A stretch of 64,000 nt of DNA from Treponema sp. GTDB taxonomy: Bacteria; Spirochaetota; Spirochaetia; Treponematales; Treponemataceae. Positions 21,099-33,600 of the stretch are shown piece after piece. Under the pieces are notes generated by a model that was given only the letters and a program-made list of their open reading frames with translations, made no database searches and had not been told where the DNA came from. Location of the stretch: assembly GCA_017617115.1 (NCBI GenBank), contig JAFZXA010000080.1, forward strand, positions 7,470 through 71,469, given 5' to 3'. Numbering within the stretch: position 1 is the first letter of the stretch; each line of letters begins with the position of its first letter. The translations under genes and the position numbers were made by a program.

Positions 21099-22412
21099 AT
21101 GAAAAATAAAGTTTTATCAATGTTCGATTATTTTCTCATACTCGTAATTGCAATTCTTGTTACAATGGGCGTAATGTTTATTTATTCATCAAGCATAAAC
21201 TCCGAAGGACTTTCTGTAACAAATGAATATAAAAAACAGATAATCTGGGCTGCTATTGGTTTTGTTTTACTAATAATTGCCACACTTTATGATTATAGAA
21301 GACTCGAAAATATTTCACCATGGTTTTATATTGGTCTTATTTTAATTTTAATTTATACAAGAATATTTGGACGTCTTGTAAATGGTGCAAAAAGTTGGAT
21401 TGGAATAGGTGAGTTTGGTATTCAACCATCAGAGTTTGGAAAAATATTTTTTATTCTTTATCTGGCGCGTTATTTAGATAACAGTAAAAATGAAAACCAG
21501 CTAAAACGATTTTTAATTGCAATGGCAATTATGATGTTACCAATGGGACTCATTCTTATTCAGCCTGACATGGGAACAGCAAGTGTATATATTCCAATTT
21601 TTCTTTTTATGTGCTTTATTGCAGATATACCGGCAAGATATATTTTATATGTTTTAGCTTTTGGTATGCTTACGATTATATTTGCAATTCTTCCTGTATG
21701 GAATAGTGAAATAGCAGAACATCCATATTCTATAATTACGATTTTAACAAACACTAAATTCCGTGTAATTCTTATTTTTACAACTTCATTTATAGCATCT
21801 GTCAGTCTTATTCTACGCCGATATTTTCACTTTCCGCGTTATATGATCTGGATTTCTTACGGATTTTCAATTATTGCAATTTCATTAATTGGTTCAATGG
21901 CTTTTTCAAAAGTTCTTAAATATTATCAGATAAAACGTCTTATTGTATTTATGAATCCCTATAAAGATCCGTTAGGTTCAGGCTGGAATATCATTCAGTC
22001 AAAAATTGCAATTGGAGCCGGAGGTCCTGTAGGGCAGGGTTTTTTAAATGGAACTCAAAGCCATTACCGTTTCTTACCACAGCAGAGCACCGACTTTATT
22101 TTTAGTATTCTTTCCGAAGAATTTGGATTTTTGGGTGGTTGTATTGTATTTACTCTTTATCTTGGAATCTTTATTCGTATTCTTATGATTATAAGACAAT
22201 GTCCAAACAGATTTGGAACTTATATAGCAGCAGGTATTTTTGGAATGCTGACCTTCCACTTTTTTATTAATGTTGGAATGGTTATGGGGATTATGCCTAT
22301 TACAGGTATTCCGCTTTTGTTTTTGTCATATGGTGGTTCGTCTCTGCTCACCGTCATGACTTGTATGGGCATGCTGATGAGCATTAACTACAGGAAGAAG
22401 GATTTGTATTAA
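21099..22412 (+). CDS. rodA: SEDS glycosyltransferase RodA
   Basis: GAKSWI, IQPSEFGK, QPDMGT, IAIGAGG, TDFIFS, GIPLLFLSYGGSS. Confidence 0.96.
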   Translation: MKNKVLSMFDYFLILVIAILVTMGVMFIYSSSINSEGLSVTNEYKKQIIWAAIGFVLLIIATLYDYRRLENISPWFYIGLILILIYTRIFGRLVNGAKSWIGIGEFGIQPSEFGKIFFILYLARYLDNSKNENQLKRFLIAMAIMMLPMGLILIQPDMGTASVYIPIFLFMCFIADIPARYILYVLAFGMLTIIFAILPVWNSEIAEHPYSIITILTNTKFRVILIFTTSFIASVSLILRRYFHFPRYMIWISYGFSIIAISLIGSMAFSKVLKYYQIKRLIVFMNPYKDPLGSGWNIIQSKIAIGAGGPVGQGFLNGTQSHYRFLPQQSTDFIFSILSEEFGFLGGCIVFTLYLGIFIRILMIIRQCPNRFGTYIAAGIFGMLTFHFFINVGMVMGIMPITGIPLLFLSYGGSSLLTVMTCMGMLMSINYRKKDLY

Positions 22413-22969
22413 TTATACCATCTGGCTTGTTTCTTTTCTTCGGTCATTTCAAATTCATAATCACAAATACCATTAATATCAATAATAAATTTGTAATCAT
22501 TTGCTGATGATGAAGGTTTTGATGACTTTTTATCTTTAAAATCATCATTATAAAGTGTATTAACTACATAAACATATTCCTTATCACACCAAAACCAGAA
22601 ACCATCAACATATTCTTCTGGATCTTCTGAAATAGTGAATCTATATGTTGCAATTGTTTCATATCCAAGAATATCATTTGCAGGATCATTCATCCATTGC
22701 TTAACAATAAACCTACAGGAAGGAGTTTTTTCATATCTGTGTGAATATCTTTTAGCAGGAAAAACAGGAGCTTCTTCTACAGGAATTTCAGCACCTTCTG
22801 CATAAAAATTCTTTATAATATAACCATCAAAAGGATCTTTTGTATATGTAACATATCCTTTTTTTGTAAACCAAGATTCCGAATATACTGAACTTCCAGA
22901 TCCACAAGAAGTAAAAAGAGTAACGAGCATAACGGAAATTAAAGATAAAAAGAAAAGTATTTTTTTCAT
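22409..22969 (-). CDS. hypothetical lipoprotein
   Basis: ATG 22969 after AGGAAG; signal MKKILFFLSLISVMLVTLFTS-C (spirochaete lipobox). Confidence 0.8.
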   Translation of the reverse strand: MKKILFFLSLISVMLVTLFTSCGSGSSVYSESWFTKKGYVTYTKDPFDGYIIKNFYAEGAEIPVEEAPVFPAKRYSHRYEKTPSCRFIVKQWMNDPANDILGYETIATYRFTISEDPEEYVDGFWFWCDKEYVYVVNTLYNDDFKDKKSSKPSSSANDYKFIIDINGICDYEFEMTEEKKQARWYN

Positions 22970-23106
22970 ATTCACTTCCTTGTATTTTAGTGATTTCATT
23001 ATATATAACCAATCAAGAAATGTAAATGTTACAATTATTTTCATTTGTATTATTTGTTTTTATGCGTTATAATTAATGTATAATAAAAAGTTAGAGGATT
23101 TAAAAT

Positions 23107-24381
23107 TTGAAAGATACACTCACAGGGCTAGACAGTTACGATGAATTTATTCCCAAGCTACAGGCACTAATTGATAATCTGGACGATAAAATAATTGTCA
23201 TAGATTATTCAGACATAAAGCATTTTAAATATTTTAATGACACCTACAGTTATAAAACAGGAAACGAACTTCTTGCCGATTACGCAAAACTTTTAATTGA
23301 CAATAATGAATACTTTTTATATGGCTCAAGAGTTGTTTCTGATAATATGGTTACTGTTGGTGTATATGATTTTGATAATAAAGATGATTTATATCAGCAG
23401 ATTTGTATACGAAACAGATTAATTGAACATGCACTGCGAAAAAAATACAAATGCAACAGACTTCGTATTTGTACCGGAATGTATTTTATAAGCAGGCATA
23501 ATAATAACATCGATGCCGAAACTGTAATTTCAAACTGCAACCTGGCAAGAAAAATTGCACGAGAAAATTCACGTGAAGATTCTGTCGTAATCTTTAAAGA
23601 AGAAATGTCTTCAAAAATAAATCACGAAATTGAAATTCTTTCGACTATAGATTCAGCTATAAAAAATAACGAACTGATTACATATTATCAGCCAAAAATA
23701 AATTCCGAAACTGGAGTTATTTGTGGAGCAGAAGCTCTTGTTCGCTGGAAAAAGAGCGACGGTACAATAATTTACCCTGATCAGTTTGTGCCAATTATAG
23801 AACGCAGCGGTCAGATAATTCAGGTTGATTATTTTATGTACCAGCAGGTTTTTCAGTTTATAAGCGAAAGAATTGCAGAAAAAAAGACTGTAGTTCCAAT
23901 TTCCATAAATGTATCACGCCAGCATTTTAAAAAGCTTGATATTATTAATTATATAAAATCGCTTCAAAGAGTATATAAAATTCCACCACAGTATGTTGAA
24001 TTTGAAATAACAGAAACTGTATGCATGGAAGATACAGCAAAAGCTATGAATTTTATACGAACCTTCCACGAAATGGGTTTTAAAGTTTCTATGGATGATT
24101 TTGGTTCTGGTTATTCATCACTTTATCTTTTAAGTGAATTACCGATTGATGTTATTAAAATGGACAAATGCTTTTTACAGTCTCAGAATTTACATGATAA
24201 AGAAAGGGTAATAATTTCGAATATTATAAACATGACTCATCAGCTTGATATAACTGCCTTATGCGAAGGAGTTGAAACCTCTCAGCAAAGCGAATTCTTA
24301 AAATCTGTAGGTTGTGATATTCAGCAGGGCTTTTATTTTTCAAGGCCAGTAACAGGCGAACAAATATCCGATATGCTCTAA
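23107..24381 (+). CDS. EAL phosphodiesterase with degenerate GGDEF domain
   Basis: D.LTGL, FKYFND.Y; GGDEF replaced by VSDNM; YYQPK, EALVRW, EITE, DDFGSGYSSL, EGVET, QGFYFS. Confidence 0.92.
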   Translation: MKDTLTGLDSYDEFIPKLQALIDNLDDKIIVIDYSDIKHFKYFNDTYSYKTGNELLADYAKLLIDNNEYFLYGSRVVSDNMVTVGVYDFDNKDDLYQQICIRNRLIEHALRKKYKCNRLRICTGMYFISRHNNNIDAETVISNCNLARKIARENSREDSVVIFKEEMSSKINHEIEILSTIDSAIKNNELITYYQPKINSETGVICGAEALVRWKKSDGTIIYPDQFVPIIERSGQIIQVDYFMYQQVFQFISERIAEKKTVVPISINVSRQHFKKLDIINYIKSLQRVYKIPPQYVEFEITETVCMEDTAKAMNFIRTFHEMGFKVSMDDFGSGYSSLYLLSELPIDVIKMDKCFLQSQNLHDKERVIISNIINMTHQLDITALCEGVETSQQSEFLKSVGCDIQQGFYFSRPVTGEQISDML

Positions 24382-24393
24382 AAAGAGGAAAAA

Positions 24394-26649
24394 ATGTTAT
24401 CTCCAATTAAACCCAAAGACTCAAAAATTACAGAAGTAAAACAGGAAAATAACTGTATATATTTGTATTCACAAGCCGGTATTTTACGCGTTTTGATTTT
24501 TAATGAAGATATTATCCGCATTTCTTTTACTCAGGAAGAAAGCTTTAATGAAAATCAGGCAGTGGAATTTTTACAGCCTCAAACGCAAACTAAATACGAT
24601 TTAATACATTCGGGTAATTTTTATTTAATAGCTACTTCAAAACTATGCTGTAAAATTAATATTAATACAGGTTCTGTAAGTTTTATAAGAAAAAATGAAG
24701 ACCAGGATAATTTACTTTTTTCTGAAAAGCAAAATCAAAGTCATCATCTGGAACGTTTTGATTCTTTTATAAGTTCCGGAAATGTTAAATTTGAAGAAAT
24801 ACAAACTGCAGATGGTGTAAAAAAACATATTCTTGCTGCAGACAAGGTTTTTGATAAAACACTTTATCATACAAGACTTGATTTTTTACTTGATGAAAAT
24901 GAAAAAATTTATGGGTTAGGGCAGTGCGAAAGTGGTATCTGGGATTACAGAAATTCAAAACAATATCTTAATCAGGGCAATAAAAAAATAGCAATTCCAT
25001 GCTTTGTTTCAAGTAAAGGCTATGCAGTTTTGTTTTCTACACAAAGTCCTTCGATTTACTGTGGAATGAGCGAGCCATATTTTTATACAACTGCCGATTA
25101 TTATCTTGATTATTATTTTATTGCACCAGAAAAAAAAGAGAATATTGTAAAAGGTATAAGACAAATTACAGGAAAAGCTCTTATGCCGCCAAAATGGGCA
25201 TTCGGATACGTTCAATCGCAGGAGCGTTATGAAAGCCAGGAAGAGATTCTGTCTACCGTAGGGGAGTTCAAAAAACGAAATATCCCATTAAGCTGCATTG
25301 TTTTAGACTGGTTAAGCTGGCCTGATGGTTTATGGGGACAAAAATCTTTTGATAAAACACGCTTTGGTGAACCTGACAAAATGGTTGAAAAACTTCATAA
25401 AGATAATGTTCATTTTATGATTTCAATCTGGCCAACTATGGATGAAAAATCAGATAACTACAAAGAAATGCTTGAGCAAAAATGTCTTTTAAGTGGTGTA
25501 AATATCTGTAATTCATTTGAAAAAAAGGCAAGGAATCTGTATTGGAAACAGGCTAAAGAAGGTCTTGCCGATTATGGTATAGAAAGCTGGTGGTGTGATT
25601 CCAGTGAACCTAGTACTCCTGAATGGAACCACTACGAATGTCCACCTGAAGAAGTACAATTTTCAGAGTATATTCAAAATGCACAGGATATAATGCCTTT
25701 AGAAAAGTCAAATGCCTATGGATTATATCATGCAAAAGGAATGTATGAAGGACAAAAATCTGATTTTCCACAAAGAAGAATGCTTATTTTAACAAGAAGC
25801 GGTGTGCTGGGAAGTCAAAAATACGGTGTAACCTTATGGTCAGGCGATACAAGCGCCAGCTGGAAAACACTTAAAAATCAACTTGTTGCAGCTGTGCAAT
25901 TCAGTCTTTCTGGCATTCCATACTGGACTTTTGACATTGGAGGTTTCTTTGTAAAAAAAGGAATAAACTGGTATTGGAATGGAGATTATGAGCAGACTAC
26001 AGAAAATCCAGCATACAGGGAATTATACACGCGATGGCTGCAATTAGGAACATTTCTTCCAATGTTCCGTGCACATGGAACAGACTGCAGGCGTGAACCG
26101 TGGGCTTTTGATGATGATTCTCATATCTTTTATAATACAATCTGCGATTTTATTAAATTACGATACAAGCTTTTACCTTACATTTATTCTATTGCAGGCA
26201 AAGTATGGAAAGAAGATGAACAGTTTATAAGGCCGCTTTTTACATGCTTTGAAGATTCTGATGTTTATGATATTTATGAACAGTTTATGTTTGGCCCGAA
26301 TATTATGGTTTGTCCCGTTATAAAACCAATGTACTACGATAAAGAGGGAAACGAAATAAATGCAGAAAAAACTATAAAAGTATATTTACCAAAAGACTGC
26401 GACTGGTACGACTGGTGGACAGGTCAACAGTATAAAGGCGGACAATGGCTTTTATGTGATGCAGATATTACAAAAATTCCGTTGTTTGTAAAAGCGGGTA
26501 CAGTAATACCTGTTGATCAGGATAATAAAACACTTACGTTACGATTTCCGGATGATAACGGACATTGCGAACCGTTTGAACTATACGAAGATGACGGTAA
26601 AACAAACGAATATCTTGATGGCAAATATAAGATTTATAAGGTTTTCTAA
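24394..26649 (+). CDS. glycoside hydrolase family 31 (alpha-xylosidase/glucosidase)
   Basis: YGLG, PPKWAFGY.QS, WWCDSSEP nucleophile, WSGDT, DIGGF, ELYTRW.Q.G.F.PMFRAHG. Confidence 0.94.
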   Translation: MLSPIKPKDSKITEVKQENNCIYLYSQAGILRVLIFNEDIIRISFTQEESFNENQAVEFLQPQTQTKYDLIHSGNFYLIATSKLCCKININTGSVSFIRKNEDQDNLLFSEKQNQSHHLERFDSFISSGNVKFEEIQTADGVKKHILAADKVFDKTLYHTRLDFLLDENEKIYGLGQCESGIWDYRNSKQYLNQGNKKIAIPCFVSSKGYAVLFSTQSPSIYCGMSEPYFYTTADYYLDYYFIAPEKKENIVKGIRQITGKALMPPKWAFGYVQSQERYESQEEILSTVGEFKKRNIPLSCIVLDWLSWPDGLWGQKSFDKTRFGEPDKMVEKLHKDNVHFMISIWPTMDEKSDNYKEMLEQKCLLSGVNICNSFEKKARNLYWKQAKEGLADYGIESWWCDSSEPSTPEWNHYECPPEEVQFSEYIQNAQDIMPLEKSNAYGLYHAKGMYEGQKSDFPQRRMLILTRSGVLGSQKYGVTLWSGDTSASWKTLKNQLVAAVQFSLSGIPYWTFDIGGFFVKKGINWYWNGDYEQTTENPAYRELYTRWLQLGTFLPMFRAHGTDCRREPWAFDDDSHIFYNTICDFIKLRYKLLPYIYSIAGKVWKEDEQFIRPLFTCFEDSDVYDIYEQFMFGPNIMVCPVIKPMYYDKEGNEINAEKTIKVYLPKDCDWYDWWTGQQYKGGQWLLCDADITKIPLFVKAGTVIPVDQDNKTLTLRFPDDNGHCEPFELYEDDGKTNEYLDGKYKIYKVF

Positions 26650-26763
26650 AATTATTAATAGTGTAGTACATTTAACGTAAGCGTCTAATTAACACCCCCT
26701 AAAAATCAAACAAATTTGAATATACAATCACCTTAATTCCAGAAAATTGAGGTGATTTTTTTT

Positions 26764-27120
26764 ATGATTTTTCCCGTCAAAAGAGTCAAAGAGGAACTGA
26801 TAAACGAGTTTGCGGTTTCAAATATGGATATTGAAACTTTCAGTCAGATGCACAGCATTCAGCCCGAAGCGTTGCGATCCTGGATTCACGAAAAGATGGA
26901 AAGAGCAAAACTAGGACTTCCAGAAAACACCGCAGAAGTTTTCCAGGCATCTGAATTTGTAGAGCTCGATATTCCAGGTGCATCAAAACATCGTATTGCA
27001 GTTGGAATAGACCGTAAAGAACTGATAACAGTCAGGGCAGGGGGAATAGAAATCGATATTCCCATAACAACAGAAGAGACAATACTTTTCAAAATATTCC
27101 AGACGGCGGCAAGTATATGA
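26764..27120 (+). CDS. tnpA: IS66 accessory protein TnpA (HTH)
   Basis: first ORF of the element; HTH-like FSQMHSIQPEALRSW, FVELDI, GGIEIDI; ATG 26764 after GAGGTGA; ATGA overlap with tnpB. Confidence 0.8.
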   Translation: MIFPVKRVKEELINEFAVSNMDIETFSQMHSIQPEALRSWIHEKMERAKLGLPENTAEVFQASEFVELDIPGASKHRIAVGIDRKELITVRAGGIEIDIPITTEETILFKIFQTAASI

Positions 27121-27464
27121 TGTTTGATTTTTCCAATACACGCATTTTCTTAAGACCAGGTGCAACTAATTTCCGAATGAGTAAAGAGCGGCTTATGCAC
27201 GTAATCAGCGATATTATGCAACAGGATCCGTTTAGTGGAGCTGTCTTCATGTTTTGCAATGCACAGAGAAAACATCTAAAACTTGTATGGTGGGATACAA
27301 ACGGCTTCTGGATTGCTCAAAAAATTCTGGAGAAAGGGCAGTGGCCATGGCCGGATACAGCAGAAGAAGCCAGAGAGATAAAAATCGATGAAGTAAAAAT
27401 GCTTCTGAAAGGAATCGATTTCTTCTGTGCCTATGAACCGATGATGTTTGAATGCATTGATTAA
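27117..27464 (+). CDS. tnpB: IS66 accessory protein TnpB (Orf2; not the RNA-guided TnpB)
   Basis: DPFSGAVFMFCN..R..LK.VWWDTNGFWIAQKILEKGQWPWP, LL.GID. Confidence 0.92.
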   Translation: MMFDFSNTRIFLRPGATNFRMSKERLMHVISDIMQQDPFSGAVFMFCNAQRKHLKLVWWDTNGFWIAQKILEKGQWPWPDTAEEAREIKIDEVKMLLKGIDFFCAYEPMMFECID

Positions 27465-27574
27465 TTGTAGATTCTCTATAAATAATTGTCAGTTTTTGAT
27501 ATATTTAAGTAAGTTTTGTGAATATTTATAACTTATGTTATGTGAGACGCCTGTATTAGGTGCTTGGAGAAAAA

Positions 27575-28630
27575 ATGAAAAAATTAATGTTTGGTATAGC
27601 TTGTATAATTTTATTTGTAGGATGTAATAAAAAAACAGAAAATCAGGGAAAAACAATATCTGCCATTGATAATTTATCTGTCAGAGAAGATCTTGTTGAT
27701 TCGCAAGAAAAATCAAATGAAGAACCTTCAGAAGAAAATTTGAATGAAGAACAGAATGTACAATTAATAAAGATTGCAGAATTTCAAAATGATCCGAATA
27801 ATAATGAAACAATTAGTATTCGAACAGATGTAGGAGATGATGACATTTCTGGAAATACAATGTTAATCTCTTCTGAAGGAAAAATACTTATCCATTGTAG
27901 AGATAAGAATGAAGTTTTTTATTTTGATTCTAGAGATAATAAATTACATCCGCTTTTTGATACCAATTTTTTACCTGCGCCAAATTTTGCACATTTTAAT
28001 CAAATCACAAAATCTCATTATTTCTTTTTTGGAAATAATGGAAATTTCTATTTAGTTGATAAAGATTTTAATTTGACGGCAAATATAAATTTTTTATACA
28101 ATTGGGATGTAAGAACCTATTTTGATGCTGCATTATATGATGAAGATTCGGATACTCTATTTTTCTTAGATAATGACAAAGATATTCATTCTATAGCACA
28201 CCCATCTTTGGACGAAAACATAAATCAAAAAAATTATAGAGATTCTACAGAAACTATGACAAGGCTTGGAAATGATGAATATGCTCCACATTTGACTCTA
28301 GATAAAAAACGAAAGTTATATATTGATGGAGTAATATATAAGGGATATTATGATTATGAATCCTATGAAATAAACGATTATAAAGTTAGTTTAAGAAACG
28401 AGGATTATCATATTAATGTTTATGATGGAAACAAAAGTCAATTCTTATACTATACAATTCCAGAAAATGAAAAAATTGAATCAATCACATATCATCCAAA
28501 CGGCGACTGGTATTTCCTGACTATAAACTGGACAACAAATATGCATACTCTGTGGCGAATCGAAAATACTTGGGATCCAGAATGGCGAGAGCAGTGGTAC
28601 AAAGAATATCCATCTGCAGTAAGACCATAA
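27575..28630 (+). CDS. passenger lipoprotein of unknown function inside IS66
   Basis: GGAGA then ATG 27575; MKKLMFGIACIILFVG-C lipobox; 351 aa, no transposase motifs. Confidence 0.88.
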   Translation: MKKLMFGIACIILFVGCNKKTENQGKTISAIDNLSVREDLVDSQEKSNEEPSEENLNEEQNVQLIKIAEFQNDPNNNETISIRTDVGDDDISGNTMLISSEGKILIHCRDKNEVFYFDSRDNKLHPLFDTNFLPAPNFAHFNQITKSHYFFFGNNGNFYLVDKDFNLTANINFLYNWDVRTYFDAALYDEDSDTLFFLDNDKDIHSIAHPSLDENINQKNYRDSTETMTRLGNDEYAPHLTLDKKRKLYIDGVIYKGYYDYESYEINDYKVSLRNEDYHINVYDGNKSQFLYYTIPENEKIESITYHPNGDWYFLTINWTTNMHTLWRIENTWDPEWREQWYKEYPSAVRP

Positions 28631-28695
28631 AATTTATCAGAAAAAATATTAACGTCCCCTTTTTAAAAGTTTTTAAATCTGTTAACATTTAAAAC

Positions 28696-30453
28696 ATGAA
28701 AAGGGAAGTAACAATACAGGAAGCTCTCACAGAACTTGCTGCTGCAAAGATTGAGATTGAATCAATGCAGCAGCAGCTTGTTTTAAAGGACAAGTTGCTT
28801 TCCTCTAAAGACGAAAAAATCACAATTCAGCTGTTCACGATAAATCAGCAGCAGGAACTGTTGAAACAGAAAGATGATGAAATAAAGATCCTTAAAGATG
28901 ATAATAATTCAAAGGATTTAAAAATCTTAGGTCTTGAAGAACGATTAAAAACACAGCTTTCATACCGCTTCGGCTCTCATTCTGAAAAATCCTTTGAACA
29001 GTGGCTTCCTTTGTTCGATGAACTTGATGATTTTCCGGAGAATGAACTACTTACAAAAGAAGAACTTGAAGAAATCAAAGAAGAAAACATCGTTGTTAAA
29101 GCCTATAAAAGGCGAAAGTGCGGCCGTAAAAAGCTTGATGATGATAACATTGAAAGAGTAAGGATTTATCACGATATTCCAGAGTCTGAAAAGACCTGTG
29201 GCTGTGGTGCAAAACTTGTAAGAATAGGGGAGAGAACAACAAAAAGATACAACATCATTCCCGAAAAGCTTTATATTGAAGAACACGTTTATCCGGTTTA
29301 TGCGTGCAGAGTATGTGAAGGAAGCGGGGATGAAGAACATCCTGTATTCCGCCAGGCTCCAGCTGCAAAAAATATAATTCCAAAATCCATAGCAACACCA
29401 GGACTTTTGAGTTATATCTTTGTGAATAAGTACTGCAATCATATGCCTTATTACAGACAGTCGCAGAATTTTGAAAGACATGGATTAGATTTATCCAGGG
29501 CTACAATGGATAAATGGCAGCTTGAAGTTTATGAGAAAATCAAACCTCTGGAAAATGTGATTCTAAAGCATATAAAATCCGGAAAAGTCTTAAACATGGA
29601 TGAAACAACATGCCGGATTTTGAATTACGAGAATGGGAATAAGGAGCGTAAAAAATCCTACATCTGGCTCGCTCACGGCGGCCCGAAAGAGAAAAAACTC
29701 GTAATTTACAGGTATTTTGAAAGCCGGAGTCCGGTATATATAAAGACTTTTATAAACGGGTTTCAAGGATGGCTTCAGACTGATGAATATCCTGGTTATG
29801 AATCGGCCTTAAAAGAACATAATATTCTCTATCCGAAACAAAAGATTATACATGTCTCATGTGCTGCTCATATACGCCGTAAGTTCTATGATGCATTACT
29901 CAACGGTAAATCAAAAGGTGCTGCAAAAGCATTGAAATACATACAGCAGATGTATTATGAGGAAAACCGTCTTAGAGAGCAGAATCTGTCTGATTCTGAA
30001 CTTGTTACCAAGCGAAAAGAAATTATAAAGCCGATTATGAATGAGTTTTATAACTGGCTGATTGAAATTCAGCCTACAGTACCGAAGTCATTTAAGTTTG
30101 GACAGGCTATAAAATATGCCGTTTCTGCATTGCCTCATTTGATGAATTACATAGATTGTCCGGAGATTTATTTAGATAATTCAATCAGCGAGCGCTCAAT
30201 ACGTCCGTATGTTTTATCAAGGAAAAACTTCTTATTTTCTGCATCAGAAGACGGCGCAAGATCAACATGCCTGTTGTTTTCTTTGATAGAATGTGCTAAA
30301 ATAAATAATATCAATCCTGAAGAATATCTTTCTTCAATTTTTGAATTAGCCGCAGATACAACAGGCTGGACTGATTCAAACTGGTCAGAACTTCTTCCTT
30401 GGAACATTAAATTGATCAAAAAATCTGATGTTTCAACGGTCTTAGTAGCCTAA
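28696..30453 (+). CDS. tnpC: IS66 DDE transposase TnpC
   Basis: N-terminal coiled coil, RFGSHSEK, C-x-C...C-xx-C, HMPYYRQ, MDETT, LQTDEY, CAAHIRRKF, DNSISERSIR, RKNFLF. Confidence 0.96.
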   Translation: MKREVTIQEALTELAAAKIEIESMQQQLVLKDKLLSSKDEKITIQLFTINQQQELLKQKDDEIKILKDDNNSKDLKILGLEERLKTQLSYRFGSHSEKSFEQWLPLFDELDDFPENELLTKEELEEIKEENIVVKAYKRRKCGRKKLDDDNIERVRIYHDIPESEKTCGCGAKLVRIGERTTKRYNIIPEKLYIEEHVYPVYACRVCEGSGDEEHPVFRQAPAAKNIIPKSIATPGLLSYIFVNKYCNHMPYYRQSQNFERHGLDLSRATMDKWQLEVYEKIKPLENVILKHIKSGKVLNMDETTCRILNYENGNKERKKSYIWLAHGGPKEKKLVIYRYFESRSPVYIKTFINGFQGWLQTDEYPGYESALKEHNILYPKQKIIHVSCAAHIRRKFYDALLNGKSKGAAKALKYIQQMYYEENRLREQNLSDSELVTKRKEIIKPIMNEFYNWLIEIQPTVPKSFKFGQAIKYAVSALPHLMNYIDCPEIYLDNSISERSIRPYVLSRKNFLFSASEDGARSTCLLFSLIECAKINNINPEEYLSSIFELAADTTGWTDSNWSELLPWNIKLIKKSDVSTVLVA

Positions 30454-30569
30454 TAGGGCGGAAAATTGACGCTTACCATTTAACACAGTAAAGGGCCTAT
30501 TTTACCTGTATGGGTAGACAGAATATGCGTTATAGGTAGTTTTAGAATATATAATTTTTGATATAATTT

Positions 30570-30646
30570 TGCGCGGAGAGGTTTTTAGAACGCAAAATAC
30601 TCCCTTTTCGTCCTGTATTTTGCGGGCTGAAAACCTCGTAAGCGCA
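30570..30646. repeat. family-C intergenic multi-stem hairpin, copy 1
   Basis: TGCGC/GCGCA, GAGGTTTTTAG/CTGAAAACCTC, CGCAAAATAC/GTATTTTGCG stems; loop contains CCCTTTTCGTC; same architecture as 59214-59302. Confidence 0.75.
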
Positions 30647-30660
30647 TAATTGTATTCACT

Positions 30661-33600
30661 TTACAATAGTTTACTCAGTTTTTCCCTTATAAATTCTGAC
30701 TTTTCTTTTAGACCTATTTTTCCTAATTTAATAAATAGAACGCTCGGCATAGTCGGGTCAAGTCGTATGGTTCCAGGATTATCTTTAATAAGCTTCATAA
30801 AATTATCAATACTGATATTTGCTGTGTTTGCAAATTCAACTTTAACTTCACCTTGCTTTTCGCGTAATGATTTTATTTCAAGTTTTCGGCAGAGTATACG
30901 AATTTCAGCCAGAGCAAGAAGGCTAGAAACTTCATCTGGAATAGGACCAAATCGGTCAGAAAGTTCATTTACTATTGCTTCAAATTCCTGGTCTGTTGTA
31001 ATAGAGGCAATCTTTTTATAAATCTCCATTTTAATCTGAGGAACAGTAACATAAGTATCTGGAATGTATCCTGTGTATTCCATTTCCATAAGAACTTCAC
31101 TGTCGGGTTTGTAATCCTTTTGGGCGGTAAGACGGTTTACTGCTTCATTAAGCAGGCGCATATACAAATCAAAACCAACTGCATATACATCGCCGGACTG
31201 ATCCTTACCAAGCAGATTGCCGGCTCCTCGGATTTCCATATCTTTCATGGCAATCTTAAAGCCGCTTCCAAGTTCTGTAAAATCACTTATTACCTGAAGA
31301 CGTTTCATTGCAACTTCACTCAAAGCTCTGTCTTTTGGATAAAGCAGATATGCGTATGCTTTTCTGTCGCTGCGACCAACACGACCACGTAACTGATAAA
31401 GCTGTGAAACGCCATACATATCGGCTCGGTCAATAATGATTGTATTTACATTTGGTATATCAATTCCGTTTTCAATAATTGTTGTTGCAATAAGTACATG
31501 AAAACCTCCCATCTTAAAACGATGGAAAATATCATCAAGTTCACTGCTTGTCATCTGCCCATGTGCAACATCAACAAGGCATTCCGGAACAATTCGTTCA
31601 ATTCTCTGGCGAACTTCGAGAAGAGACTCTACCCTGTTATGTAAAAAGAAAACCTGCCCTCCCCGGTCCATTTCCTGTCTTATAGCAGCTGCTACCCTGT
31701 CATCATTGAATTCATCAATCACAGTTTCAATTGCCTGACGGTTCTGCGGAGGTGTTGTTAAAAGACTCATGTCGCGGATTTTTAAAAGACTCATATGAAG
31801 TGTGCGAGGAATTGGAGTTGCAGACATTGTAAGACAGTCAACATTGTTTTTCATTTCCTTAAGGCGTTCCTTGTCTTTTACGCCAAAACGCTGCTCTTCA
31901 TCAATTATCATAAGGCCAAGATTTTTAAAATGAACATCTTTTTGAATAATGCGGTGCGTACCAACTAAAATATCAAGCTCGCCCTGCTCCAGTTTTTTAA
32001 GGATTTTTTTCTGTTCGGCAGCAGGAACAAAACGACTAAGTCGGGCAATCTTTACAGGGAAGTTTTTGAAGCGTTCAATTAAAGTTTCATAATGCTGTTC
32101 TGCAAGTATTGTTGTTGGTGCCAGAAAGGCTACCTGCTTACCACCCATTACAGCCTTAAAAGCTGCCCTCATTGCAATTTCGGTTTTACCATAGCCAACA
32201 TCACCGCAAATCAAGCGGTCCATTGGAACAGGCTTTTCCATGTCAGCTTTTACTTCTTCTGTTACTGTTATCTGATCAGGAGTATCTTCATAAGGGAACG
32301 CGGCTTCAAAAGCACTTTGCCATTCTTTTTCTTTTGGAAAAGCATACCCTACACTGGCCTTTCGCCTTGAATACAAATCAATAAGTTTTTGTGCAAGATC
32401 TTCTACAGCCTTCTGAACCTTACTCTTTCGGTTTTCCCATGATTTACTGCCAATACGGTCAAGACGAGGTTTTTCACCTTCGTTACCAATATAACGCTGA
32501 ACAAGGTTTACCTGCTCAATCGGTACAAAAGCAAATTCCTGGTCGGCATATTCAAGCTTAATATAATCGCGTTCATTACCAAGCGATTTTACGCGTTCAA
32601 TTCCATGAAAGAGCCCTATTCCCCAGTTTACATGAACTATATAGTCGCCGGGATTGAGCTCAACAAACGTATCAATTACCTGAGATTTTGCTTTATTAAC
32701 AGATTTTGCAACATACTTACGTCGTCCAAAAATCTCATTTTCCTGAATTACCAAAAGCTTAATTTCCGGGATATTAAATCCAGCTGTAATTGCTTTTGGT
32801 ATAAGCTGAACAGGTTTACGGATTTCATCAGGCTCAATATCAGTCCAATCTTTGAATATTTCATGAATACGAAGCTGCTGGTTATCGTTGTCGGTAAAAA
32901 TCGTTATATTCCAGCCATCATTCTGAAGATTCGTGAGCTCTTCTTTCATATAGTTTAAGTTTCCAAAGAAACTACGCGATGGCTCTGTTTTTAAGACAAT
33001 CTGTGTGTTTTGAGCATCATTTTCATCTAAAACTGTCTTAAAATATAGACTATTTGACACTTTTTCGAGTAATAAATTAAGTTCATAAAGCATCATATCA
33101 GGCGGGAGAACAGGTAAAGTCTCTTTTGTCTTTCTGTACATCCCTGAATATTCCCGGTTTATTGCAAGTTCTGCATTTAAAAGGCGGTCATAATCGTAAA
33201 ATAAAACAAATGTATCTGATGCAAGATAATCAAGAATTGAAAATTGTTTGTCCCATAAAAGGCTGTAATAAAACTCCTCGCCTTCTGTTTCTTTTTTAAC
33301 TGAAAGTTCATCAAGCATCATTTCCTGGTATTGAAGAGCATGCTCTGTAAACGGCAGATGGATGTGACCGTGAATTTCATCATCTTCCTGCGTTCCCGAA
33401 GAAATTGCGCTGTTCTGATATTCAGAAAGCTTAAGACGAAGTTTATCTACCAGTTCATCAGTCCAAAGAACTTCTTTTGTAGGACAAATTGTAATACTTT
33501 CTCTAGATTTTAGAGTTATTTGAGAATCTGTTTCAAACTCTTTAAGCGACTCAATTATATCAAAATCAAAAACAATACGAACAGGATTTTCTTCAAGCGG

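Follow-up and report, generated by a model that had tools for sequence, protein, structure and literature searches.

An IS66 subgroup of Treponema as a likely integrase-less platform for integron cassettes

This article concerns a 64,000-nucleotide stretch of Treponema sp. DNA (GenBank assembly GCA_017617115.1, contig JAFZXA010000080.1, positions 7,470 to 71,469 of the forward strand), which we call the window, and in it a single IS66 insertion sequence (IS) that carries a lipoprotein gene between two of its own transposition genes, tnpB and tnpC. Having compared this element with its relatives, we regard it as an aged member of a Treponema IS66 subgroup that is likely to be an integrase-less mobile integron platform, with cassettes probably loaded in trans by the integron integrase, IntI.

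A passenger gene between tnpB and tnpC

The element spans 26677–30476, 3,800 bp with the ends GTAAGCGTC...GACGCTTAC, and lies between two exact copies of an 8-bp target-site duplication, CATTTAAC, at 26669–26676 and 30477–30484 (both read on the plus strand). Its 21-nt terminal inverted repeats occupy 26677–26697 (plus strand; the same end is found in relatives) and 30456–30476 (minus strand), and the two arms are 76% complementary. Between them run three transposition genes in one orientation, on the plus strand. tnpA (26764–27120) encodes 118 aa from the ATG used by relatives, although its open reading frame (ORF) opens at a GTG at 26752; we assign it from a weak HTH_Tnp_1 match (E 0.06), its position and its conservation, at 93–98% identity in close relatives. 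tnpB (27117–27464) encodes the IS66 accessory protein (PF05717, E 4e-28; NF033819). tnpC (28696–30453) encodes a DDE transposase of 585 aa, above cut-off for PF03050, PF13005, PF13817, PF13007 and NF033517, with D302, D363 and E499 as candidate DDE residues. These three genes, the GTAA-type ends and the 8-bp duplication are those of an IS66; the passenger gene within a single pair of IS ends makes it a tIS66.

The stop codon of tnpB and the start of tnpC are 1,231 nt apart, at 28% GC. This interval holds the cargo, a plus-strand gene at 27575–28630 for a 351-aa lipoprotein with a signal peptide and Cys17, predicted to be β-propeller-like and likely an orphan immunity protein. No attC follows the gene, and its GC content is 28.6%, against 37–40% in the tnp genes. 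The original prediction, made from the DNA letters and their translations, had described an intact tnpA, tnpB and tnpC, an exact 8-bp duplication around 3,800 bp and a lipoprotein gene that separates tnpB from tnpC, and we find every one of these features where it was placed. Promoter and terminator scans gave results at chance level, Rfam returned no match at E 0.05 in eight loci, the window element included, and the RNA runs contained only 0.09–0.18 of the words.

Could the lipoprotein gene have entered an otherwise ordinary IS66 in a single secondary event, or be a product of misassembly? The original prediction had itself raised the question. The element is single-copy in the host assembly (78% complete), where neither blastn nor tblastn found another, and in some relatives tnpB and tnpC are contiguous. 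Contigs of other samples, however, bridge the junctions: tnpB to cargo in X3 (26809–27600), X4 (27382–27616) and X6 (27423–27604), the last from another study; cargo to tnpC in X4 (28572–28817); and right end to flank in X3 and X4. The window element is therefore not an assembly artefact. The samples with matching contigs are animal gut metagenomes. With the same cargo present in a relative (L040), and many other cargos at the same borders, we consider this explanation already refuted.

The relatives come from 338 Treponema genomes, searched with the element as query, and from a metagenome collection, searched with tnpB. They form a near clade, with tnpB at least 72% identical where it is whole, and a distant clade, at 47–58%. 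Both slot borders lie on one contig in 23 near-clade elements, a duplicated record being counted a single time; 18 of these carry cargo, of unrelated kinds, and five are empty or hold remnants. tnpB and tnpC are contiguous in 12 of the 14 distant-clade elements; in the family's other genera, tnpC was in view in 9 of 11 IS66 loci, and a cargo would have fitted in none of them. The slot carries relatives of the lipoprotein, other secreted proteins with SH3 or YARHG domains, PIN-type toxin–antitoxin pairs and a GNAT, as well as an ArsR–permease–thioredoxin set and radical SAM–NUDIX, RibD-like and alginate-lyase-like genes.

This variety disposes of two simpler descriptions, a standard fourth IS66 gene (the cargo differs among copies) and a slot for surface proteins alone; the single pair of ends disposes of a third, a composite transposon. 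The original prediction had proposed a single-element transporter IS with an exchangeable slot, and different cargos at the same borders bear that out. It was too narrow in supposing that the slot moves surface-protein genes, and its premise that cargo normally travels in composite transposons overlooked passenger-carrying IS66 elements, already described as tIS66 (10.1101/2021.05.26.445724, PMC12888890). Of the mechanism, it saw the slot and missed the integron-type attI, the gene cassettes and the attC sites. One distant-clade element without att sites carries a Vat-like hexapeptide acetyltransferase gene in the same slot (L087:3892–4527; NF000311, 257 bits, under the cut-off of 300), and the slot of L051 holds the 3′ remnant of a related gene.

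The borders of the slot

Within one pair of ends the subgroup shows this order: tnpA, tnpB, a conserved block, an attI-like site, one or more cassettes with attC, a fixed border and tnpC. In the window the conserved block comes directly after tnpB (27465–27511, plus strand) and includes an extended −10-like motif at 27497–27505; we read it as a putative Pc-like cassette promoter. The block is common to loaded relatives, several of which have a perfect TGnTATAAT, and the consensus promoter scan did not single out the motif. Next comes a degenerate attI-like site (27512–27543, plus strand), whose presumed crossover, G/TT between 27537 and 27538, lies 73 nt past the tnpB stop. Then follows an integron-cassette 5′ leader with a ribosome-binding site (27538–27574, plus strand), a worn copy of the commonest Treponema cassette leader. 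It matches a leader of intI-linked arrays at 19 of 27 positions, a score reached by none of 200 shuffles.

The yardstick for the attI-like site is the chromosomal integron. Treponema integrons have intI oriented as the array (PMC3607928), and therefore attI downstream of intI. Among 42 regions downstream of intI, 29 allowed the first-cassette junction to be placed (28 through leader motifs, one manually), and these 29 junctions share a GGATA-like box, a 12-nt spacing and GTTAT. A matrix built solely from them scores 6.3–23.1 in 13 of 34 near-clade loci, at 63–88 nt past the tnpB stop, with the next best at 1.7; in the distant clade it picks out none of 15 loci (maximum −4.1). Judged by sequence, then, an attI with G/TT stands ahead of the first cassette in those 13, as it does in an integron. 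Six of them (L049, L050, L052, L063, L069 and L072) outscore all positions of the host genome except the host's two attI-type sites. The window site is the weakest, at 6.3, a score that 53 host-genome sites reach, and its 73-nt offset is that of five cleaner sites (L024, L044, L046, L047 and L059). Behind the GTTATG core the leaders of 11 of the 13 match those of intI-linked arrays at 19–27 of 27 positions, unequalled in 200 shuffles; the matches of L040 and L063 were reached by one and three of 200 shuffles, respectively.

Two pairs of elements matter more to us than any score. L044 and L046 agree at 100% of positions over the 700 nt that precede the tnpB stop and the 78 nt that follow it, as do L024 and L047; directly past GTTATG each pair diverges into different cassette leaders. 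This switch, as a pattern in aligned sequences, is our strongest evidence that the site should be read as an attI.

One could still argue that there is no dedicated attI. Cassettes would then enter a GTT-type secondary (attG) site in a permissive gap between tnpB and tnpC, as in CALIN/SALIN elements, and the IS would simply tolerate them. IntI does insert cassettes at genomic secondary sites (10.1101/2022.09.11.507474), in L048 a cassette leader adjoins an upstream GTTAT and the attI block is missing, and a similar TTAACAC motif sits at the border in the contiguous clade. Against this, the likeness of the left site to chromosomal attI extends over about 25 nt, well beyond GTT, and includes the spacing, and the six high-scoring copies just listed exceed all host sites but the two of attI type. 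The promoter–attI block is, moreover, absent from the contiguous clade and hence was gained. We think an attG origin very improbable and retain the reading of a true attI.

Many copies have lost attI as well as attC and keep just the upstream block and a secreted-protein gene. The tnpB tree has 44 rows, eight having been left out as too distant, truncated or duplicate, and its attI-bearing copies fall within a 30-row group with support 90/98; because this group is not starred and the elements are mosaic, we draw no order of events from it. The same promoter–attI block also heads part of a cassette array in another genome (L031:4945–5027, on G007:C7), with no IS66 or intI in the 9 kb examined.

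On the right, the slot closes at a constant border with a putative tnpC promoter region (28649–28695, plus strand), and here the last attC of relatives ends. An attC profile made from 55 sites in 15 intI-linked arrays matches 12 of 56 slot segments. Nine elements (L023, L048, L049, L050, L052, L067, L068, L073 and L167) have their last attC ending on the fixed border, and in those measured this end lies 43–45 or 80–82 nt before the tnpC ATG; in L073 the attC is long and was identified by eye. The bottom strands of 10 IS-borne attC sites fold into the expected stem with unpaired bases, compensatory changes occur in 12 of 24 pairs, and the attC families are those of the genus's chromosomal integrons. 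Cassettes ended by an attC that folds on the bottom strand, a hallmark of integrons, are thus present in relatives; in the window copy the attC scan found none.

Some elements are more complete than others. attI and a terminal attC share a contig in L049, L050 and L052, and L052 has on one contig an attI, two cassettes, a terminal attC, both ends and the 8-bp duplication. In L073, six ORFs and three attC sites fill the slot before tnpC. By the definition of CALIN/SALIN, attC without a nearby intI, relatives like L044, L052 and L073 would qualify, and the window copy, having no attC, would be missed. Two variations at the right border deserve recording. In L072 an attC-ended cassette is followed by two YARHG genes, each ending on a further copy of the border, which we read in the sequence as probable growth of the slot by duplication at that border. 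In the slot of L067 and at L023:5807–6036, a transposase-like ORF, presumably of the IS110 family, interrupts an attC just past the first core motif, like an attC-targeting IS.

Loading in trans

Nowhere in the subgroup did we find an integrase ORF within an element. A complete integron has intI adjoining attI; the host of the window has a full-length intI, above the TIGR02249 cut-off, on a separate contig (C121), where an attI follows it; an attC array lies on yet another (C72). Across the genus, intI occurs in 98 of 338 genomes, 89 of them above cut-off. Genome G000 has a second strong attI-type site with a cassette leader near the start of contig C33, and a weaker one at C55:2623, both off the intI contig.

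The mechanism we propose has four parts. The host's chromosomal IntI would act in trans, recombining attC with attI at G/TT in the element. The block after tnpB would be the promoter that drives the cassettes. A tnpC promoter at the right border would keep the cargo from silencing tnpC. Finally, the IS66 transposase would move the loaded element as one unit, to new sites and into integron-free hosts. A fuller picture, toward which we lean by a small measure, is of a non-autonomous mobile integron: an IS with attI and promoter that borrows a sedentary integrase, samples the cassette pool, and expresses and ferries cassettes between gut treponemes, integron-free hosts included, with useful ones such as immunity genes locked in by loss of attC.

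Relatives, loaded ones included, sit in many different flanks with target duplications of their own. In G027 and G278 the duplications match across split contigs, the left contig of G027 being rearranged or misjoined after the first cassette.

Several results weigh against loading in trans followed by transposition as a unit. An exact 8-bp duplication flanks only three of the seven loaded elements that have both ends and flanks, and in no genome did one loaded element turn up at two sites. The window cargo recurs in L040 beside another right flank, but the tnpC of L040 is recombined (84–86% identical) and L040 lies in the same mfd neighbourhood. An empty allele, with attI joined directly to the right border, was not found in the 338 genus genomes; a pattern search for it gave 10 places against seven control matches, and the one in an IS66 was a loaded copy. 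The joint was likewise absent from eight runs, a short joint in X10 being the attI-less contiguous form. The five empty or remnant copies lack attI altogether; of the 34 near-clade loci, 21 have no recognisable one, and the site in the window is weak. Carriers are also poor in integrase. Only 4 of the 17 genomes with the subgroup's tnpC promoter, mostly incomplete assemblies, have intI, no enrichment over the 98 of 338 in the genus, and a search that scored all candidates found none in G027 (99% complete) or G006 (94%). In most carriers, therefore, exchange cannot be ongoing. This scarcity does fit delivery of loaded elements into integron-free hosts.

The same results invite a different history. 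An integron head, with promoter, attI and first cassettes, may have been captured once or a few times by illegitimate recombination, the later changes being only RecA-type exchange between IS copies and arrays, with IntI no longer using the IS-borne attI. The missing empty allele, the 13 of 17 carriers without detected intI, the mosaic slot and backbone of the window copy and the promoter–attI block that stands outside any IS66 in the G007 array would all be at home in such a fossil. What it explains poorly is precision: identical backbones switch cargo exactly past a 6-nt core, without longer homology on the cassette side, and several types of attC end on the same border nucleotide in nine elements. 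Slots that hold several cassettes with near-pristine attC sites (L044, L052, L073) also speak against the fossil. We therefore judge the fossil history unlikely and prefer loading by IntI in trans for the subgroup.

The window copy is at a late stage, with attI and leader worn and attC gone. Its cassette is therefore probably no longer excisable, and so probably locked in. That the lipoprotein gene was once a cassette is supported by X3, where the start of an attC comes after a 95–96% variant of the gene's 3′ part, and by G284, which has a homolog inside an attC array. The slot is 92–100% identical to that of L040 over its first 1,100 nt, the last part being 85–89% identical to L038 and L061; compared with L052, tnpC is 87–94% identical and tnpB 74%. 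With slot and backbone both mosaic, homologous exchange between copies also shapes these elements, and the window cargo would now change by homologous recombination between IS copies and paralogous cargo genes.

As to where the elements land, IS66 elements of both clades recur near the 3′ end of mfd in different species (window 30477–30661, L032/L040, L045, L046, L060, L081, L082 and L089). There are eight such mfd-proximal loci, the window included, and two more near rodA, so that the mfd 3′ end is possibly an insertion hotspot or a target preference. The empty chromosomal site between the GH31 gene and mfd was not found in 40 relatives or 154 loci. Between rodA and the IS, at 22409–26649, the window has a hypothetical gene, a GGDEF–EAL gene and the GH31 gene, and the content of this interval varies among species. 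L021:1–339 and L052:7227–7565 share an identical 339-nt left flank and the same insertion point, with backbones only 84% identical and different cargos, reflecting either repeated use of one site or allelic replacement. A right end is followed by a left end, 0–21 nt apart and often 7–9, in L022, L039, L042, L044, L050, L080 and L084; these are either tandem copies or circle-type junctions.

The cargo and the wider setting

The lipoprotein has no Pfam or NCBIfam match. We found 46 homologs, mostly on short contigs and some with an SH3 domain; a search of genome contigs gave four loci, two of which matched in the signal peptide only, and the family is present in 15 of the 338 genomes. The structure model (mean pLDDT 78.7) has a β-propeller-like fold behind a flexible, lipid-anchored stalk. 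A fold search returned generic propellers only, the best (Z 12.0, rmsd 4.5, 235 aligned) tied with many, and we infer no function from matches so generic. Named immunity families gave neither a sequence match nor a specific structural one.

In G112 and G183, homologs lie directly behind large proteins with a variable C-terminus bearing the motif DC-G-V-R...PGD...H, which we take to be an NlpC/P60-like domain, and repeated partial modules occur in these loci. A position behind a variable toxin domain, together with orphan occurrence, is what an immunity gene should show. Homologs stand behind such a domain in 2 of the 14 other genomes with the family, and in the remaining loci viewed they belong to orphan arrays, cassette arrays or IS slots. 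For the G112 pair, a complex model scored 0.76, against 0.00 for the best control, with contact agreement of at least 59% and partner pLDDT of at least 85; this mark was reached by 116 of 157 solved pairs and 2 of 215 mismatched ones, counts that hold roughly with the alignments used. The model supports binding within the G112 pair. Pulling the other way, the NlpC/P60 Pfam match is below cut-off (E 0.02) and on a sister domain, and the modelled homolog shares only 33% identity with the protein of the window. The host assembly yielded no homolog of the toxin. We incline, with some reserve, to orphan immunity as the role of the cargo, although the case for the platform does not need it. The protein is predicted to be a membrane-anchored β-propeller that would neutralise NlpC/P60-like cell-wall hydrolases of competing treponemes.

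Orphan immunity arrays are a feature of polymorphic toxin systems, including the recombinase-associated arrays of gut Bacteroidales, and Tse1–Tsi1 is a pair of amidase and immunity protein. The likeness here is of a secreted or lipid-anchored, propeller-like protein whose homologs stand behind a papain-like Cys/His domain and in toxin-less arrays, and it touches only the cargo's likely role. Gut treponemes also have polymorphic-toxin-like loci (L095, L189). The large proteins encoded there keep a conserved junction but vary in a Cys/His domain at the C-terminus, behind every one of them stands a gene for a secreted protein of the SH3, YARHG or propeller family, and no Pfam family covers them. 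Elsewhere, arrays of two or three paralogous secreted proteins lie behind a conserved gene of about 500 aa (L026, L090, L092, L093, L094, L183), in two genomes beside recombinase-like ORFs, and L183, the one scanned, has no attC.

The platform itself recalls several known systems. Among mobile integrons, those of class 1 ride in Tn402/Tn21-type transposons. Like these, the Treponema element carries a promoter, an attI and a cassette array in a transposable element; unlike them, it lacks intI, has an IS of 2.6 kb as carrier and keeps the platform between its transposition genes (general outline of mobile integrons, PMC4889954). Lacking intI, it cannot recombine alone, and the window element is a tIS66 rather than a complete integron. 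With the sedentary integrons of Treponema (PMC3607928) it has attC families, cassette leaders and attI layout in common, yet its attI–cassette platform is without intI, in an IS, at many chromosomal sites. CALIN/SALIN elements are defined by attC only and are attributed to loss of intI, rearrangement or secondary-site insertion (PMC4889954, 10.1101/2022.09.11.507474). They too have attC-bounded cassettes far from intI, on which an integrase encoded elsewhere in the genome may act, whereas the Treponema element adds a conserved attI-like site and fixed borders within a mobile element.

Passenger-carrying IS66 elements, the tIS66, include ISPa75 with fosZ, ISPsp18, ISPa120 and ISPa128, and 7 of 25 Pseudomonas IS66 have passengers (PMC12888890); tIS are described as confined to the IS1595 and IS66 families (10.1101/2021.05.26.445724). 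Ours resembles them in being one IS66, with tnpA, tnpB, a DDE transposase, GTAAGCGT ends, 8-bp duplications and passengers inside the ends. The passenger of ISPa75 is one fixed gene: it follows the transposase gene and does not differ among the 159 strains (PMC12888890). That of the Treponema elements, in contrast, lies between tnpB and tnpC, varies behind identical backbones and is bounded by attI-like and attC sites (passenger position was compared with that of ISPa75 alone). Since tIS66 elements are already described, cargo in an IS66 is not in itself new; the new part is the mechanism, the attI/attC slot. In a literature search by listings and abstracts, no IS66 carrying an attI inside it came up; the search did not extend to ISfinder, subscription reviews or supplements, and a prior mention is possible.

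Cassettes of sedentary integrons are thought to leave mainly by mobilisation of the whole integron or by insertion at secondary sites. If our reading is true, an IS with attI but no integrase would be a third way out, small, reloadable and invisible to searches based on intI. It would also give some CALIN/SALIN elements a concrete origin, and offer a living model of a transposon turning into a mobile integron. Within this one family we may be looking at an ageing series, from clean attI and attC arrays to loss of attC and then of attI. For gene flow in the ruminant gut, the slot carries toxin–antitoxin, metal-handling and acetyltransferase genes and, likely, genes for immunity between competing bacteria.

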